In this document: one piece after another, positions 2,108 to 39,169 of the stretch | Layout of the letters: every line of letters starts with the position of its first letter | Position numbering within the stretch: position 1 is the stretch's first letter | From: Escherichia phage vB_Ec-G1 | Direction: 5' to 3' (one strand) | DNA: 64,000 nt | Sequence record: PQ433349.1 | Program-made: the position numbers and the translations under genes | The notes under the pieces: model-generated | What the model saw: only the letters and a program-made list of their open reading frames with translations | Database searches by the model: none | Told to the model about the DNA's origin: nothing

Positions 2108-3049
2108 TTAATAACCTCCTTCAAAAGGCTTTACTACATGTTGATTAGCTTTAAAACGTTCAACATAGTCGTTTTCGCCCATGTTTTCATATAGCTTAAT
2201 AACAACATAAAAGTTTTCCCAAGCATATTCCCTAAACCAACCACTAGTGATGGATGTGCAGACTTTAGATAAAGCCATTATAAAACTTTGCTTAGGGGTT
2301 GGACCTCCGATCTCTCCACCGAAAGGAATTTGTGAACGTTCCAAAGCCAAAACACACGCTTCTTCATAAACACCTAACAGGCGCACATGTTTTGGTTGAG
2401 CAAAAAACTTTTCTTTGCTGGTCATAACTTCACTTCCATCTTTCATATAAGATTTATATGCCGGAGCATCCATTACCGCGATTGCTTCATGGATAGAATC
2501 ATGATCATAAACATACGGAACCTCATCACCTTTAAAAAAGTCTTTACTTTTTACGTTTAAGTTCGGATGAGAGTAAGTGTATGTTTCTTTCTCACGCAAC
2601 TCATAAATACTCTTAAGATTTTCTGGGATCTTTGCGCCCAGTGACCGCATGAAATGAATATCTTTCATAGTTTTAAAGAAGTGAGGACTATCCTTTTTAA
2701 AACGATGACTCATTTTAAGAAGGTAGAGCACATCTAAAGGAGCAACAACATGTCCAGCGTAAGTTCGACGAACATCATCAGAATCTTCACAATAACTAAT
2801 CAAAGCTTCTGTGCTATCTCCTTGAGAAGCAATATCGTATTCCAAATGTGCACCAGCTATCATTTTGACATGGCCTTTGTTTCCTTTACGTTCTACAAGT
2901 TCAACAAACTCCTCTTGAGAGAACATTTTTGATAATTCTTCCCACTCTTGTTCTGTACACAGGTAATCTAAATCTACACAAGGGCGATACAAGTCTTTTC
3001 CCATGTCCATAGCATGAATTTGCAATGCACGGCTACCAATTAACACCAT
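2108..3049 (-). CDS. hypothetical protein; possible Pol-beta-superfamily nucleotidyltransferase
   Basis: 313-aa ORF, GAGGAG SD; N-terminal GS...DLD pattern weakly resembling nucleotidyltransferase signature. Confidence 0.5.
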   Translation of the reverse strand: MVLIGSRALQIHAMDMGKDLYRPCVDLDYLCTEQEWEELSKMFSQEEFVELVERKGNKGHVKMIAGAHLEYDIASQGDSTEALISYCEDSDDVRRTYAGHVVAPLDVLYLLKMSHRFKKDSPHFFKTMKDIHFMRSLGAKIPENLKSIYELREKETYTYSHPNLNVKSKDFFKGDEVPYVYDHDSIHEAIAVMDAPAYKSYMKDGSEVMTSKEKFFAQPKHVRLLGVYEEACVLALERSQIPFGGEIGGPTPKQSFIMALSKVCTSITSGWFREYAWENFYVVIKLYENMGENDYVERFKANQHVVKPFEGGY

Positions 3050-3107
3050 AATATTTCTCCTCTATTGGTTGATAGGTTAAGTTTATCAAGCTTCCAGATT
3101 TCTGTCA

Positions 3108-3131
3108 ATAAAAAACCCGCCGAAGCGGGTT
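3108..3131 (-). terminator. rho-independent terminator (minus strand, UUCG tetraloop)
   Basis: On minus strand CCCGC-ttcg-GCGGG followed by TTTTTT; -35 TTGACA of next promoter directly after. Confidence 0.7.
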
Positions 3132-3139
3132 ATTATTTA

Positions 3140-3412
3140 CTAACACATTGAGGAAGAAGAGATCCAAACACCTCTTGTGGTTAAACCATTTTCATCCAAC
3201 TCTACACCATAATCTTCACAAATGAAATCAATATAGTGATCTGCGGCTGGCGTTCCTGTAGGGTAATAAGTTTCTCCGTTACCGTAGTCACCTATCCAAG
3301 CTTGTTCCTGAAACTGTTCACAAAGTTCTTCGATTTCCTTACGAAACTTTCTTTGTGCTTGTTCCATCTCTTTAACTTTCTTTTTTATCAGCAGTTCGCC
3401 TTCAGACTCCAC
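3140..3412 (-). CDS. small acidic protein, W-x-SSS-C tail family member
   Basis: 90-aa ORF ending ...GVWISSSSMC; followed by UUCG-hairpin terminator. Confidence 0.5.
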   Translation of the reverse strand: MESEGELLIKKKVKEMEQAQRKFRKEIEELCEQFQEQAWIGDYGNGETYYPTGTPAADHYIDFICEDYGVELDENGLTTRGVWISSSSMC

Positions 3413-3421
3413 AATCTCTCC

Positions 3422-3682
3422 TTAACAGCTACTACTGTGCCAAACGCCTTGAGAATTAACGACGAAACCATCATCACCTTCACCATAACAAGAAGAGGAT
3501 TGCCAATCTTCAAAACAGATTGCGTTATCTTCTAAACTAAGACCAAAACCAGCATCTTCAGCTTCTTTTGTAAGTTCGTCCACTAAAGCCATAATAGCTT
3601 GGGCTTTTTCAGTTAATTCTTCAACATTACGATCACTCATTAGTATTTCTCCTCCGGTTGGAAAACTGAACGACAAGCCCAC
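3422..3682 (-). CDS. small acidic protein, W-x-SSS-C tail family member (motif present twice)
   Basis: Ends ...WQSSSC...GVWHSSSC; alternative start at 3640 possible. Confidence 0.5.
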   Translation of the reverse strand: MGLSFSFPTGGEILMSDRNVEELTEKAQAIMALVDELTKEAEDAGFGLSLEDNAICFEDWQSSSCYGEGDDGFVVNSQGVWHSSSC

Positions 3683-3954
3683 ATACTAGCTTCTTTTAAA
3701 TGTTTAATAGCACAACGGATTTGATCAATACGCTCGTATGCAACATCTAATTCTTTTTCTGTGCCGTCAAAAGACCCATGATATGCTTCACAATACTCTT
3801 CCTCTAAAGCTTTGAAGATTAAACCTAAACGCTCTTCTGCATCTTTAATAGCGTTAACCTTGCCAATCTTATCGTCAGTATGCGCCTTATAACCTTTGAT
3901 ATCTTCGATTCCCACTTTACCTCCTATTAACAACTTAAAGAAGATGGATGCCAA
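3640..3954 (-). CDS. hypothetical protein (104 aa)
   Basis: Minus ORF in tandem small-gene array. Confidence 0.45.
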   Translation of the reverse strand: MASIFFKLLIGGKVGIEDIKGYKAHTDDKIGKVNAIKDAEERLGLIFKALEEEYCEAYHGSFDGTEKELDVAYERIDQIRCAIKHLKEASMWACRSVFQPEEKY

Positions 3955-4124
3955 TTTGTTCCAGTATTCTCATTTTCATCTTCTGGATCATAATAGCCAC
4001 CCATCCCATATTCAGGGGAGAAACGGAAACCTTTACCAGTCTCATCTGCTAACTGCTCTGCTTCCGCTAAAGCCTCATAAGCTGCTTTTACGGCTTCTTC
4101 TACTGTTTTAAACTTGGTCGTCAT
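3927..4124 (-). CDS. small acidic protein, W-x-SSS-C tail family member
   Basis: 65-aa ORF ending ...NWHPSSLSC. Confidence 0.45.
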   Translation of the reverse strand: MTTKFKTVEEAVKAAYEALAEAEQLADETGKGFRFSPEYGMGGYYDPEDENENTGTNWHPSSLSC

Positions 4125-4398
4125 AAAATTTCTCCTCTCCTAAAGACATGTTGACATGAAATGCACGATATGTAAATTCGTTGTCCGTTGTGTTTGAATA
4201 AAACTCAAATTGAACAACACCGTCTTGAGAAGACAGATACATGCCAATTTGAACTGTTCCTTCTGGTACCAGGTAAGCATACTCTGGACGTAGTGTTACA
4301 TTGTAAAAATAAAGTTCCCCAACACCCATTTCATCCCAAGCTTCCCAAGCGGTAACGAAGTTACTTTCAAAACTTGTTACTGATCTGAACTCTGCCAT
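4108..4398 (-). CDS. hypothetical protein (96 aa)
   Basis: Minus ORF, operon context. Confidence 0.45.
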   Translation of the reverse strand: MAEFRSVTSFESNFVTAWEAWDEMGVGELYFYNVTLRPEYAYLVPEGTVQIGMYLSSQDGVVQFEFYSNTTDNEFTYRAFHVNMSLGEEKFYDDQV

Positions 4399-4889
4399 AA
4401 AACCTCCTCAATCTTGTAGTTTGACTCCATCTCCAACACATTTCCACGAACGTCTCTCCGAAGAAAGGCATAAGCTTTATTAGGTATTGTAGACTCATAT
4501 TTAACCATATCTGGCACAGCAAAAGATACTACTACTCCTGCTGGGCTTCTGTCAAGAGCCTTATTAATATTTCTAAGGATATCGTTAGCCAAGATTTCTG
4601 CCAATTCTCCAAGAACGGTTTCGGTTATATCTTTATATCCCATTAAGTATTTGTTGATATCTTTCATCTCTGTATTGTTCAGAGTATAATCCAAAGGATA
4701 GAAATTCAAAGCGGAGTCACTTTTATGTGTCCACATGAAATGCACCCGATCCGAGCAGAATCGTAACCCTCTTTGAAGAATATCTTCTACAACAGGCAGA
4801 ATTTCTTTTGTCACATCATTAACCATGTTGTAATCTAAGATTTCTGCCAAGTTTGTTCTTTGTTCACCACGTTTACGTTTAGGAATCAC
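4377..4889 (-). CDS. hypothetical protein (170 aa)
   Basis: Minus ORF, operon context. Confidence 0.5.
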   Translation of the reverse strand: MIPKRKRGEQRTNLAEILDYNMVNDVTKEILPVVEDILQRGLRFCSDRVHFMWTHKSDSALNFYPLDYTLNNTEMKDINKYLMGYKDITETVLGELAEILANDILRNINKALDRSPAGVVVSFAVPDMVKYESTIPNKAYAFLRRDVRGNVLEMESNYKIEEVLWQSSDQ

Positions 4890-5460
4890 TTGTTATTGCC
4901 CTCATTACCAAAGGTCGTAGAAAATCGTAAATCTCTTGTTTTGTTTTCCCACGAATGTTTAAACAAGGAACATTATTGGCTTTAGCTATCTTCCAAGCCG
5001 TAGCTGTTCCACCTTTTGCATCTCCATGTTTATCAGTATTAGCACAAGCCAACAAGAAACATGATGGAGCAGGATTCTCCAAATCTCTACCTAACACTTG
5101 ATGCACATTACGTTGGTGCAATTTTCTAGCACCCTGCTTAAGCTTTTCATAGGCTGGGTGAACATCTTTGATCCATTGCACAGAGATAGCATAGTTCATT
5201 GTATCTGGTTTTGCAAGAACAATAACATCCCCTGGAATCTGATTACCTTTGAAATTTTCCCAAGGAACATAAATCTCCTTGTTAGTAGGATTTTCAGACT
5301 CTTGGACACCTGTTTCAAAAGCAGAATCACTACCCTCTGCCTTCCCAGACCTTAATTTAAACCCAAGGTTTGAAAGCCATTTCCCTATGCCTACCATCAA
5401 AGCCCACTCTTCTTCGGATATGTCTCTACTTCCAACTCCCGTATAGAACAGTTCTACCAT
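4879..5460 (-). CDS. DprA/Smf-like (SLOG) Rossmann-fold nucleotide-binding protein
   Basis: YTGVGSRDI...SGKAEGSDSAFE pattern typical of DprA/LOG-like Rossmann domain; start refined to ATG 5460 (GAGGTGA SD). Confidence 0.5.
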   Translation of the reverse strand: MVELFYTGVGSRDISEEEWALMVGIGKWLSNLGFKLRSGKAEGSDSAFETGVQESENPTNKEIYVPWENFKGNQIPGDVIVLAKPDTMNYAISVQWIKDVHPAYEKLKQGARKLHQRNVHQVLGRDLENPAPSCFLLACANTDKHGDAKGGTATAWKIAKANNVPCLNIRGKTKQEIYDFLRPLVMRAITSDS

Positions 5461-5467
5461 AATCACC

Positions 5468-5776
5468 TCAACAAGTAATTTCAAAAGGTGTATACGGTTC
5501 CGTATTTCTCATGATCCAAGGACTGCTAGGATTGCTCGGATCATAAGGACCAAAAGGTTTTATGGTCGGTTGTGTTTCTTTCTTCTGAATCTCTTCAAAA
5601 ATACGACGAAGTTCAGAATATTCTTGATCCACCATAAGATTCGGTGCATCTGATTCTACAGCTTGCAGGTTATCTTCCTTAAGAACAATCTCACGAACAA
5701 GATTAACATCTTCTGTTTCTAAGATAACTTCTTTACGGATATTACCTACACTTTGAATAATTGTAATCTTATACAT
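5468..5776 (-). CDS. hypothetical protein (102 aa)
   Basis: Minus ORF. Confidence 0.45.
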   Translation of the reverse strand: MYKITIIQSVGNIRKEVILETEDVNLVREIVLKEDNLQAVESDAPNLMVDQEYSELRRIFEEIQKKETQPTIKPFGPYDPSNPSSPWIMRNTEPYTPFEITC

Positions 5777-37238: not shown

Positions 37239-37313
37239 GGCCCTGTAGCTCAATGGGAGAGCTGTCGGCTCATAACCGATAGGTAGCTGGATCGAAACCA
37301 GCCAGGGCCACCA
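37239..37313 (+). tRNA. tRNA-Met (anticodon CAT; elongator or Ile2-type)
   Basis: Acceptor GGCCCTG/CAGGGCC, anticodon loop CTCATAA, T-arm, encoded CCA. Confidence 0.75.
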
Positions 37314-37315
37314 AC

Positions 37316-37390
37316 GTCTTTATGGTGTAATGGATAGCACAGGAGTCTTCTAAACTCTTAGTCAAGGTTCGATTCCTTGTAAAGACACCA
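37316..37390 (+). tRNA. tRNA-Arg (anticodon TCT)
   Basis: Acceptor GTCTTTA/TAAAGAC, anticodon loop CTTCTAA, T-loop TTCGATT, CCA. Confidence 0.8.
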
Positions 37391-37586
37391 GAACATTTTA
37401 ACATGAATTAGCTCAAGTGATTTGAACCCACTACTGATCATGGTGGCAGAGAATGAGGCAAGTATGTCAGACATTATAAACAAAGGCCACGGTTATATTA
37501 GAAGACATAAATGCTCGAAGAGCACCGTTCGTGGAGAACGGGGGTTGGTGGAGTCACCATTCATGGTAAAATGTTTTAAAAAACTA

Positions 37587-37615
37587 TTGACAACAAACAT
37601 TATTTTATGTTAGAT
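37587..37615 (+). promoter_or_regulatory. candidate sigma70-type promoter upstream of tRNA-Ser
   Basis: TTGACA, 17-nt spacer, TTAGAT. Confidence 0.4.
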
Positions 37616-37624
37616 TATAAATAT

Positions 37625-37715
37625 GGAAGGGCAAATCGACGTGGCGACGAAAACGGTCTTGAAAACCGCCGAGCTTGAAAGAGCCTTGGGAGTTCGACTC
37701 TCCCTCCTTCCGCCA
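37625..37715 (+). tRNA. tRNA-Ser (anticodon TGA), type II
   Basis: Acceptor GGAAGGG/TCCTTCC, anticodon loop CTTGAAA, long variable arm, CCA. Confidence 0.7.
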
Positions 37716-37740
37716 GATTGGTAGATTGGTAGATTGGTGA
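37716..37740 (+). repeat. tandem direct repeat (gattggta x3) overlapping tRNA 5' end
   Basis: gattggtagattggtagattggtg read directly. Confidence 0.6.
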
Positions 37741-37813
37741 AATGGTAGCCACAACAGTTTGCTAAACTGTAGTCGGAAACGGCGTGTAGGTTCGAGTCCT
37801 ACATCTACCGCCA
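37728..37813 (+). tRNA. tRNA-Ser (anticodon GCT), type II
   Basis: Acceptor GGTAGAT/ATCTACC, anticodon loop TTGCTAA, long variable arm, CCA. Confidence 0.7.
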
Positions 37814-37943
37814 AGTTCTTTTTAATATAGCTTACTTTAATAGAGTAAATTTTCGGCAGATGGCCCCCATCATCTTACCGATACCTCATAGTTAGTGGTG
37901 CGAACACTGGCTATTTTAAAAAGAATTTAAATATTAGTATTTA

Positions 37944-38031
37944 GGTGAGTTAATTCCGTAGGGGTAGCGGGGCAGACTGTAAATCTGTTATCATTGCGAT
38001 TCGGGTGGTTCGACTCCATCACTCACCACCA
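37944..38031 (+). tRNA. tRNA-Tyr (anticodon GTA), type II
   Basis: Acceptor GGTGAGT/ACTCACC, anticodon arm GCAGA-CTGTAAA-TCTGT as in bacterial tRNA-Tyr, discriminator A, CCA. Confidence 0.7.
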
Positions 38032-38037
38032 AATTAA

Positions 38038-38123
38038 GATGAGTTGGCTGAATGGTTTAAGCAGCGGACTGTTAATCCGTGTTCGAAAGAACAATATAGG
38101 TTCGAATCCTATACTCATCGCCA
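38038..38123 (+). tRNA. atypical tRNA with anticodon GTT (Asn) on a Tyr-like type II scaffold
   Basis: Acceptor GATGAGT/ACTCATC, anticodon loop CTGTTAA, extra GTTCGAAAGAAC hairpin before T-arm, discriminator G, CCA. Confidence 0.5.
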
Positions 38124-38130
38124 GAATTAT

Positions 38131-38207
38131 GGACTTGTAGAGTTAAGGTAAACCCCCAGTCGCCAATAGGCTTCTGGAATTGCAGGTATCGAATCCTGCC
38201 GAGTCCC
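38131..38207 (+). ncRNA. tRNA-like element without canonical anticodon arm (possible pseudo-tRNA)
   Basis: Acceptor-like GGACTTG/CGAGTCC and T-arm-like GCAGG-TATCGAAT-CCTGC, but no 5-7-5 anticodon arm with U33 could be folded. Confidence 0.3.
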
Positions 38208-38213
38208 AGCATT

Positions 38214-38288
38214 GCTCCTATAGTATAATGGCTATTACAACGGTTTTGTAATCCGTGGATCTCTGTTCGATTCAGTGTGGGAGCACCA
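38214..38288 (+). tRNA. tRNA-Thr (anticodon TGT)
   Basis: Acceptor GCTCCTA/TGGGAGC, anticodon loop TTTGTAA, T-loop TTCGATT, CCA. Confidence 0.7.
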
Positions 38289-38561
38289 ACACAACATTAA
38301 GAGCACTGTGATTGATCGTCGTATCCTGTGCACAAGGTCTGCTCGAAAGACAGTGTTCTTAGTATTGTGTTGATCACAAAAAGAGTCACCCGAAACTTGA
38401 CCGGAGTAGGGTTGGATGGGGCAAAATGAGAAGCGGCTCTCCCATCGACAGCAACGAAGAATAATATTTGACTTTGGTTTTGTATTATTTTAAGTTAGCT
38501 TACCGAACGTAGGGCTAGTCACCCAACGGGATACTCGTCACTGTCCCAATCAATAAAAGTC

Positions 38562-38591
38562 TTGACAACAAATAGTAAAATGTAGTATAGT
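38562..38591 (+). promoter_or_regulatory. sigma70-type promoter upstream of tRNA-Gly
   Basis: TTGACA, 18-nt spacer, TATAGT; tRNA starts about 12 nt downstream. Confidence 0.6.
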
Positions 38592-38602
38592 AAATATATA
38601 GG

Positions 38603-38676
38603 GCGTTCTTGGTGTAGCGGTAGCATTCCGTCCTTCCAAGTCGGCGGCACGAGTTCGATCCTCGTAGAACGCTCCA
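38603..38676 (+). tRNA. tRNA-Gly (anticodon TCC)
   Basis: Acceptor GCGTTCT/AGAACGC, anticodon loop CTTCCAA, T-arm ACGAG-TTCGATC-CTCGT, CCA. Confidence 0.7.
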
Positions 38677-38774
38677 AATTATTTAATAAAGGGTTGCCAG
38701 AAAACTTTCTCTTTTACTCATGGTTTTCTCCTTCTCTCACACTTCTTCTGGTTGCCCTTCATTAAATGATTTAT

Positions 38775-38850
38775 TGGTTTGTAGTGTAGTCCGGTAGCAC
38801 ACGACACTTTGACTGTCGTAGGTTTGGTTCAAATCCAGACAGACCAGCCA
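38775..38850 (+). tRNA. tRNA-Gln (anticodon TTG)
   Basis: U1:A72 acceptor TGGTTTG/CAGACCA, anticodon arm CGACA-CTTTGAC-TGTCG, CCA. Confidence 0.75.
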
Positions 38851-38855
38851 TATAA

Positions 38856-38932
38856 CGGAGTTTAGCTCAGTTTGGTAGAGCATACGCTTTGGGAGCGTAG
38901 GGTCGCAGGTTCGAATCCTGCAATTCCGACCA
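38856..38932 (+). tRNA. tRNA-Pro (anticodon TGG)
   Basis: C1:G72 acceptor CGGAGTT/AATTCCG, anticodon arm TACGC-TTTGGGA-GCGTA, T-arm GCAGG-TTCGAAT-CCTGC, CCA. Confidence 0.8.
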
Positions 38933-38938
38933 ATTAAA

Positions 38939-39012
38939 TGTTTCGTAGTTCAATGGTAGAACCCACGACTGATAATCGTGAGACACAAGTTCGATTCTTG
39001 TCGAAACAACCA
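38939..39012 (+). tRNA. tRNA-Ile (anticodon GAT)
   Basis: Acceptor TGTTTCG/CGAAACA, anticodon arm CACGA-CTGATAA-TCGTG, T-loop TTCGATT, CCA. Confidence 0.75.
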
Positions 39013-39014
39013 GT

Positions 39015-39085
39015 TTCCCGTTAGACTTACAGGATAAGAGTTCCACAGCTTATTGTGATGCTGGTTCGAATCCAGCACGGGATAC
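39015..39085 (+). ncRNA. degenerate tRNA-like element (intact T-arm, no canonical anticodon arm)
   Basis: T-arm GCTGG-TTCGAAT-CCAGC and acceptor pairing TTCCCGT/ACGGGAT present; no loop with U33 and purine-37 found. Confidence 0.3.
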
Positions 39086-39090
39086 ATAAT

Positions 39091-39169
39091 AGCGGGATAG
39101 AGGAGTCTGGTCGTCCTCGCCAGTTTCATATGCTGGAGATCATCGGTTCAAATCCGATTCCCGCCTCCA
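39091..39169 (+). tRNA. tRNA-Met (anticodon CAT), second copy, A1xC72 mismatch
   Basis: Anticodon arm CCAGT-TTCATAT-GCTGG, T-arm ATCGG-TTCAAAT-CCGAT, CCA; first acceptor pair unpaired. Confidence 0.6.

Follow-up and report, generated by a model that had tools for sequence, protein, structure and literature searches.

Why would several small phage proteins that have little else in common end in the same few residues? The question is raised by a window of 64,000 nucleotides (nt) from Escherichia phage vB_Ec-G1 (PQ433349.1), the window being the whole stretch of DNA that was analyzed. Three small genes on its minus strand, which we call A, B, and D, encode acidic proteins (isoelectric points of 4.0 to 4.4) whose C termini combine a Trp, a run of Ser, and a Cys. 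A first-pass annotation had reported these proteins and their tails between positions 3140 and 4124, and our reading of the DNA agrees with it. Here, we report that this tail identifies a widespread family of phage-specific partner proteins of a toxin-like nucleotidyltransferase (NTase), whose gene lies immediately downstream at 2108-3049, a context that lay outside the first-pass annotation. The genes and motifs are the following.

Gene A: 3140..3412, minus strand; 90 amino acids (aa), "DYGNGETYYP" subtype, GTG start behind AAGGAGAG, ending in GVWISSSSMC and a stop; PHROG 899; gp062 in phage Schickermooser.
Tail motif of A: 3143..3166, minus strand; W83-I-S-S-S-S-M-C90, TGG ATC TCT TCT TCC TCA ATG TGT, then TAG.
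Gene B: 3422..3640, minus strand; 72 aa, two-motif subtype, internal EDWQSSSCYGE, ending in GVWHSSSC and a stop; PHROG 899; gp063 in Schickermooser.
Internal motif of B: 3488..3505, minus strand; W46-Q-S-S-S-C51, TGG CAA TCC TCT TCT TGT.
Terminal motif of B: 3425..3442, minus strand; W67-H-S-S-S-C72, TGG CAC AGT AGT AGC TGT, then TAA.
Gene D: 3927..4124, minus strand; 65 aa, acidic, "YGMGG" subtype, ending in TNWHPSSLSC and a stop; open reading frame (ORF), PHROG 899; gp065 in Schickermooser.
Tail motif of D: 3930..3953, minus strand; W58-H-P-S-S-L-S-C65, TGG CAT CCA TCT TCT TTA AGT TGT, then TAA.
NTase partner gene: 2108..3049, minus strand; 313 aa, Pfam DUF7277 (N-terminal) and DUF7275, predicted pol-beta-fold nucleotidyltransferase.

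The limits given for A, B, and D match those in the GenBank record of Schickermooser, a near-identical phage, where gp062 to gp065 are listed as hypothetical proteins and a predicted terminator comes after them. For gene B, the start is the ATG at 3640, giving 72 aa instead of the 86 aa of the maximal ORF. A, B, and D are the sole ORFs of the 64-kb window that bear a W-SS-C tail. By megablast, region 2900-4400 is kept at full length and 95 to 99% identity in 64 phage records, all of Phapecoctavirus (phAPEC8-like Escherichia coli myoviruses of ~150 kb).

A phage family defined by its C-terminal tail

The three genes had been called tandem paralogues. Pairwise BLASTP among A, B, and D returned nothing significant, and the relationship emerged at the profile level. 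All three proteins matched PHROG 899, a cluster of unknown function (E = 5.1e-14 for A, 9.5e-6 for B, and 1.2e-12 for D), in alignments that each covered the ~70 C-terminal positions of the profile. With hhalign, the D type aligned to the A type over the full length (98.3%, E = 1.8e-14), D to B over the helix and first strand (94%), and B to A over the C-terminal part (81%). On this profile-level evidence, A, B, and D are deep, diverged paralogues; they are not strictly tandem, as an Acb2-like gene separates B from D. Paralogues within one genome are ~20% identical and have little in common beyond the tail and the small C-terminal sheet modeled around it, hereafter the knob, and each subtype (A, B, or D type) is kept across phage genera.

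The family reaches far beyond phAPEC8-like phages. A word-indexed protein search with D alone found 9 near-identical proteins, and the wider reach came from searches with alignments. By tblastn, A-like genes occurred in 415 phage records and B-like genes in 318, including T4-like Straboviridae of Escherichia, Klebsiella, Enterobacter, Aeromonas, Serratia, Shewanella, and Edwardsiella; members were also found in Acinetobacter and Pseudomonas phages and on one GC-rich phage contig. The loci that we fetched by hand held arrays of one to five adjacent small ORFs, each with a tail, as in phage WG01 (AWISSSAMC, GWVSSSSEC, FWFTSSMSC, and DWLNSSC...IWYPSSC). The matching region of T4 itself (58-68 kb) contained neither the small-protein family nor the NTase. 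An exhaustive hidden Markov model (HMM) search of 1.84 billion representative proteins, performed without any motif pattern, returned 30 clusters that all aligned through the last residue, and all 30 ended in W-x-x-SS-x-x-C. The commonest design was a helix, A-D-E-x-G-x-x-F-x-F, x-Y-G-M-G-G-x-Y, an acidic linker, and G-x-W-x-[PS]-S-S-x-S-C-stop. Two distant members were encoded on contigs of 0.6 to 1.2 kb without usable gene context. The B-type homologue of Klebsiella phage vB_KpnM-VAC36 (MZ571829.1) is labeled "major capsid protein", an evident misannotation.

Other resources had little to say about these proteins. Scans of Pfam, NCBIfam, and PADLOC gave no significant match for A, B, or D, and searches of all PDB chains with A, D, and the family profiles yielded no hit of substance (peroxiredoxin and CesA, E > 0.04). 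The Schickermooser record cites NCBI CDD PHA02102 for the orthologue of B; like PHROG 899, this is a "hypothetical protein" cluster whose entry gives no function, motif description, or context. The literature that we searched did not mention DUF7275, DUF7277, phrog_899, or PHA02102, and the W-SS-C family was not described in the works consulted on Phapecoctavirus, anti-defense, phage NTases, sponge discovery (a preprint), or jumbo phages (a survey).

The tail is conserved as a peptide. In type-specific alignments, the invariant columns included W83, S86, and C90 for the A type (alignments A1 and A2), W58, S61, S62, and C65 for the D type (A4), and W46, S49, C51, Y52, G53, E54, W67, S70, and C72 for the B type (A5), whose internal motif was kept in 19 of 19 sequences. 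We gathered 266 distinct tail-bearing ORFs, most of which had the spacing W-x2-SS-x2-C (194) or W-x2-SS-C (34). Cys was the last residue in all 266, which is not an independent test since the collecting pattern itself demanded a terminal Cys; the 30 HMM clusters, all with a terminal Cys, are independent of that pattern. Tails were rare elsewhere, in 10 of 8,789 other ORFs from 80 phage loci, and their common presence in A, B, and D is far beyond chance.

The first-pass annotation had taken the use of different Ser codons (TCN or AGY) as a sign of selection on the peptide, and had named two results that would speak against this, namely absence of the motif from related phages and an overlapping nucleotide element. 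Neither was found. In the window, the Ser codons read TCT TCT TCC TCA in A, AGT AGT AGC in the terminal motif and TCC TCT TCT in the internal motif of B, and TCT TCT...AGT in D. Among the 266 members, the two invariant Ser positions used all six Ser codons (~68% TCN, ~32% AGY), the terminal Cys used both TGC (174) and TGT (92), and all three stops followed. Compared with phage phiWec190, the ratio of nonsynonymous to synonymous substitutions was 0.15 for B and 0.035 for D. Tails do stand at gene ends near the Shine-Dalgarno sequence of the next gene, as a ribosome-binding site, terminator, RNA structure, or recombination site might. A search for DNA repeats found none over the tails, the sole common boxes being translation-initiation regions, an Rfam scan gave no match at threshold over the tails, and the internal motif of B sits in mid-gene. 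The codon data refute an overlapping nucleotide element, to which we give practically no chance. The diversity of Ser, Cys, and stop codons and the absence of repeats and Rfam families thus argue for selection on the peptide and not on a nucleotide signal.

An AlphaFold2 model of A, built on an alignment of 38 sequences, had a mean predicted local distance difference test score (pLDDT) of 94.4 and a predicted template modeling score of 0.78. It comprised a helix (4-34), two strands (38-40 and 47-50) joined by a Y-G-N-G turn, a short helix (62-67), a strand (82-85, V-W-I-S), and a terminal helical turn (86-89, S-S-S-M) followed by Cys90. The Trp was modeled in the third strand of a small sheet packed on the long N-terminal helix, and a second conserved element besides the tail was F-x-F...Y-G-x-G-G-x-Y. 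In this model, the motif is part of a folded domain of ~60 residues and not a floppy tag. The idea of a free C-terminal tag, raised in the first-pass annotation, is thus not supported, since the tail is placed in a strand and terminal turn. A fold search with the A-type model found no resembling solved structure and no beta-grasp match.

Linkage to a nucleotidyltransferase gene

In all eight non-T4 loci fetched by hand, which represent seven distinct phages besides the window's own lineage, an NTase homologue (42 to 78% identity) adjoined the array. The linkage was tested both ways in IMG/VR, through a small-protein alignment and through the 313-aa protein. Among 48 loci found with the small protein, 47 carried the NTase gene on the same strand, nearly always 0 to 1.5 kb downstream of the last family member (just upstream in L026). 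Of 80 loci found with the NTase, 68 had one to five tail-bearing ORFs at most 3.5 kb upstream by the strict pattern; three more held the family at shifted coordinates and two were missed only by the ORF-length filter, which brings the count to at least 73 of 80. No family member lay downstream of the NTase in any of these 80 loci. When all loci were pooled, 132 of 147, which are partly dependent as some contigs were retrieved by both queries, had one to five family genes on the NTase strand, no more than 4 kb upstream. The small family and the NTase are therefore in near-obligate genomic coupling.

Three other loci retrieved with the NTase had variant tails in which Cys is not final, ...GWAPSNVCW in L118 (a 432-kb contig) and ...AWTPSGCSY in L132 and L133. 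The NTases encoded downstream of these genes retain their catalytic residues, and the tails are natural exceptions to the rule of a terminal Cys.

The linkage persists in Straboviridae, Stephanstirmvirinae, Pseudomonas phages of ~98 kb, and jumbo phages of 350 to 450 kb, on contigs that span ~40 kb to 446 kb. What flanks the pair varies from one group of phages to another (nrdD in Aeromonas phage 31, dexA and tRNAs in Shewanella phage Thanatos-2, an HNH gene in CC2), so the pair travels as a unit. The NTase protein occurred in 734 phage records; in a set of 185,579 bacterial and archaeal species, each represented by one genome, it was found on 9 contigs, all from metagenome bins. From these figures, the module is essentially phage-only. 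The small-protein family is phage-only. The public record MG065650.1 ("Campylobacter phage B15") encodes an NTase 100% identical to that of the window, for which reason we regard this phage as a Phapecoctavirus and its host label as doubtful. None of 120 NTase homologues carried the small domain or the tail as a Rosetta-stone fusion.

The NTase alignment contained the invariant residues G5-S6, D26-x-D28, E70, and K112-x-x-x-R116, which hold even in outlier loci, as well as the blocks H183-D184...H187, E229-E230, and T265-S-I-T-S-G270. From its sequence, this pattern looks like that of an active pol-beta-type nucleotidyltransferase with a MenT-like motif III. An AlphaFold2 model (pLDDT of 90) predicted a pol-beta fold with the GS...DxD...acid core and a C-terminal helical lobe, and its nearest solved structural relatives were MenT1, MenT3, and MenT4. 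The similarity did not extend to sequence: Pfam at E <= 1 gave DUF7275, DUF7277, and a chance match to CLCA but not DUF1814/AbiEii, and the NTase profile had zero matches among PDB chains, including those of MenT. In MenT1 and MenT3, the cis acceptors are T39 and S78. In the 147 phage NTases, we found no conserved Ser or Thr two residues before the first catalytic Asp; position 24, whose equivalence rests on the motif and not on structural superposition, is P in 55, N in 29, and C in 14, with other residues in the remainder. We also considered pairing of the terminal Cys of the small proteins with C31 or C264 of the NTase. Both candidates were rejected: the T4-like enzymes have Ala in place of C31, and C264 is replaced by Ala or Ser at several loci where the small family is nonetheless present.

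A different acidic ORF of ~98 aa adjoins distant relatives of the NTase in Vibrio phage Va3 (L152, 3070-3366), Streptomyces phage Wakanda (L150, 4097-4396), and Gordonia phage Abscondus (L149, 4103-4396). By BLASTP, the Va3 protein matched that of Wakanda with E = 4e-4 and the Gordonia protein matched it with E = 0.095, and these ORFs may form a second partner family.

Comparison with known systems and possible roles

Judged by fold, catalytic core, and gene order, the closest known system is MenAT1 of Mycobacterium tuberculosis (DUF1814/AbiEii), in which a short helix-led protein is likewise encoded upstream of a bi-lobed pol-beta NTase; the phage enzyme has the same GS, DxD, third-acid, and K-x-x-x-R pattern. 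MenT toxins add nucleotides to tRNA 3' ends, and MenT1 is neutralized by MenA1, a protein of 68 aa usually encoded upstream, of which a 32-residue helix is enough and which works by making MenT1 phosphorylate its own active-site Thr39 (PMC10435456, PMC11375011). The module is not a member of MenAT, and we keep it apart for several reasons. The phage NTase shows no sequence-level membership, its only Pfam families being DUF7277 and DUF7275. The small proteins are unrelated to MenA1, and their conserved part is the C-terminal knob instead of the helix; profile A2, searched against the chains of the whole PDB (where the solved MenA1-MenT1 complex should be present), reached a best E value of 0.17 and matched no antitoxin. 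The cis phospho-acceptor position is not conserved. In addition, one to five diverged paralogues accompany each phage NTase, and the module is confined to virulent phages.

Other pol-beta-fold enzymes nucleotidylate proteins, such as the MNT antitoxins that AMPylate HEPN toxins, GlnE/GlnD, and CitX/MdcG, the last of which equips a small acidic carrier protein with a prosthetic group, derived from a nucleotide, at a Ser. These systems resemble the module in pairing an NTase-fold enzyme with a dedicated small acidic partner that offers an acceptor hydroxyl, here putative; the putative acceptor Ser would lie in a C-terminal W-x-x-S-S-x-x-C knob that has no counterpart there. We know of no phage-encoded, carrier-protein-like system of protein nucleotidylation described for virulent phages. 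Ubiquitin-like or ThiS-type modifiers differ in each defining trait, since the model contains no beta-grasp, the proteins end in Cys and not in Gly-Gly, and the partner is a pol-beta enzyme and not E1-like.

The reading that we favor, with a probability of about 35%, is that the NTase recognizes the tail knob and that the small proteins are its acceptor clients. Each member would consist of a long N-terminal helix bearing a tiny, three-stranded modeled knob, whose last strand and terminal turn form the invariant G-x-W-x-x-S-S-x-x-C-COOH. Synteny suggests that the small proteins and the downstream NTase make up a two-component module, and we infer from it that they would interact physically: the common knob and tail would be the element recognized by the single NTase, and the variable helix and body would direct each paralogue to its own target. 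One NTase could thereby service, that is, arm or switch, one to five different clients early in infection, probably for host takeover or counter-defense. The two invariant Ser residues beside the free C-terminal Cys may be acceptor hydroxyls for nucleotidyl or phosphoryl transfer. As a tentative and rather improbable extension of this covalent step, the tail Ser (or Cys) of up to five effectors would receive a nucleotide, a short chain of nucleotides, or a phosphate from the NTase.

Several observations fit this proposal. Pol-beta enzymes use hydroxyl nucleophiles. The lack of conservation at the cis-acceptor position leaves room for an acceptor supplied in trans. Because the paralogues share only the knob and tail, and the subtypes are kept across genera, several clients or adaptors would be expected and redundant antitoxins would not. 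A terminal docking or acceptor element is also consistent with the apparent requirement for a free C terminus and with the absence of NTase fusions. MenT-family enzymes are governed by small partner proteins encoded upstream and can transfer phosphate to Ser or Thr of their own active site (PMC11375011, PMC10435456), the Men systems being regulated through such transfer (PMC11375011).

Other observations weigh against it. The closest pol-beta NTases act on tRNA, not on proteins (PMC10435456). AlphaFold2 places the tail in regular secondary structure, and the invariant Ser residues modeled at the start of the terminal turn could be mere helix caps. About 10% of NTase loci have no recognizable family member nearby, and the distant NTase relatives in Gordonia, Streptomyces, and Vibrio (Va3) phages have no W-SS-C genes. 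Between the array and the NTase gene, the window has a terminator and a promoter-like site, and up to three unrelated genes intervene in some T4-like phages, so the genes are not always cotranslated.

The order of the genes, small gene before NTase as in menA1-menT1, could instead mean that the small proteins are antitoxin-like regulators, which we regard as only slightly less likely than the client reading. Like MenA1 with MenT1, they would bind the NTase and restrain it or set the timing of its activity, the helix docking on the enzyme and the knob and tail plugging its active site, and the NTase would be the effector, for example by modifying host tRNA 3' ends for shut-off. MenA1 is short and its 32-residue helix suffices for neutralization (PMC10435456), so that layout, size, and helix are alike; the linkage of ~90% agrees with this, and with a terminator after the array, the small proteins would be made in excess of the enzyme. 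Such regulators would hardly need to come as up to five very different paralogues for a single NTase. Moreover, the helices vary within a genome while the tail is kept, the reverse of MenA1, whose C terminus is dispensable; the family has no sequence similarity to MenA1 or any PDB chain; the surroundings of a few catalytically intact NTase genes hold no family member; and it is not obvious why a virulent phage would need an addiction module. It is unlikely, in our view, that the small proteins are independent counter-defense or host-takeover proteins (sponges or inhibitors of host proteins) whose accessory island merely tends to include the NTase, their knobs forming, in an oligomer, a site that binds a ligand or metal. 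An Acb2 sponge gene does stand amid the array with other accessory genes nearby, the proteins resemble many anti-defense proteins in being small, acidic, and helix-led, and a Gly-rich loop with Ser, Trp, and Cys could make a binding pocket. Yet co-residence in an island is insufficient to explain linkage to one enzyme gene across phage families despite differing flanks. A, B, and D also differ from known sponges (Acb2, Tad1, Tad2, Acb4, Lockin, Sequestin), with which they share small size and location in accessory regions: they matched neither the Acb2, Tad1, or related models nor any other Pfam, PADLOC, or NCBIfam entry, and showed no fold match to solved sponges.

The strict conservation of a Ser pair and a terminal Cys could also reflect a tag recognized by the host for modification, targeting, or degradation, or the core of a ribosomally synthesized and post-translationally modified peptide of the lanthionine or aminovinyl-cysteine type. 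S-x-x-C-COOH resembles the residues joined in aminovinyl-cysteine peptides, and B had a weak NCBIfam match to the class IV lanthipeptide model SflA (E = 0.11). This match scored 12.4 bits for a cut-off of 25, and we rejected a lanthipeptide identity for B. The confidently modeled fold (pLDDT of 94) is not that of a disordered tag or a leader-core peptide, and no lanthipeptide, decarboxylase, radical-SAM, or other maturation enzyme was present among the neighbors scanned or annotated. The family also spans phages of many hosts, its sole constant partner being encoded by the phage. We therefore hold either version to be quite improbable.

Whichever role applies, the module is present in hundreds of sequenced virulent phages, including RB69-, JS98-, and phAPEC8-type phages used as models or in therapy, and both of its components are catalogued yet annotated merely as "hypothetical". 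NTases of the MenT/AbiEii class have so far been known as bacterial toxins or abortive-infection weapons; here, a MenT/AbiEii-type NTase appears to be standard equipment of phage genomes, with a small-protein family of its own. Should the enzyme act on tRNA, it would constitute a new route of host shut-off or counter-defense; should the small proteins be what it modifies, it would represent a viral post-translational system of a new kind. In either case, the rule "ORF ending in W-x-x-SS-x-x-C upstream of DUF7275" would allow the annotation of thousands of genes, and the invariant tail provides a sharp and cheap experimental handle.

Other features of the locus

The region around the module contains the following additional elements.

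Acb2/Tad1-hairpin gene: 3640..3915, minus strand; 91 aa, outside the W-SS-C family, between B and D; Pfam PF24729, E = 1.3e-16.
Intrinsic-terminator-like hairpin: 3114..3131, minus strand; AACCCGC-TTCG-GCGGGTT then TTTTTATT, directly after gene A; a terminator is also annotated in Schickermooser.
Sigma-70-like promoter match: 3080..3108, minus strand; TTGACA, 17-nt spacer, TG, TAAACT, between the terminator and the NTase gene; a consensus match only.
Translation-initiation boxes: 3047-3063, 3641-3654, and 4122-4138; NTase gene, gene B, and gene D.

The Acb2/Tad1-hairpin protein is 64% identical to T4 Vs.4 and belongs to a family of nucleotide sponges directed against CBASS and Thoeris. In phiWec190 (locus L009), which has an otherwise identical array, A, B, and D adjoin each other without this gene, indicating that it was inserted into the array. 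The initiation boxes of the NTase gene, gene B, and gene D are nearly identical over 14 to 17 nt and read AGAGGAGAAAT[A/T]TTATG on the coding strand, which suggests that the three genes have similarly strong translation starts.

Further accessory genes of the neighborhood encode Sir2, methyltransferases, and a NinI phosphatase. Upstream of the module, a 201-aa DprA-like (SLOG-type) protein is encoded at 4879-5484 on the minus strand. Homologues of this protein are also encoded close to the module, at most a few kb away, in Shewanella phage Thanatos-2 (L006) and in the IMG/VR loci L012, L013, and L035; this association is weaker than that of the NTase and possibly meaningful. A small ORF of 102 aa at 5468-5776 (minus strand) also ends in Cys (...PFEITC), an ending kept in phiWec190 (L009, 5106-5444), and is not a member of the W-SS-C family. 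Elsewhere in the window, 10 tRNA genes are clustered at 37239-39169 on the plus strand, and the GC skew changes sign near 36 kb, where transcription units switch from the minus to the plus strand.

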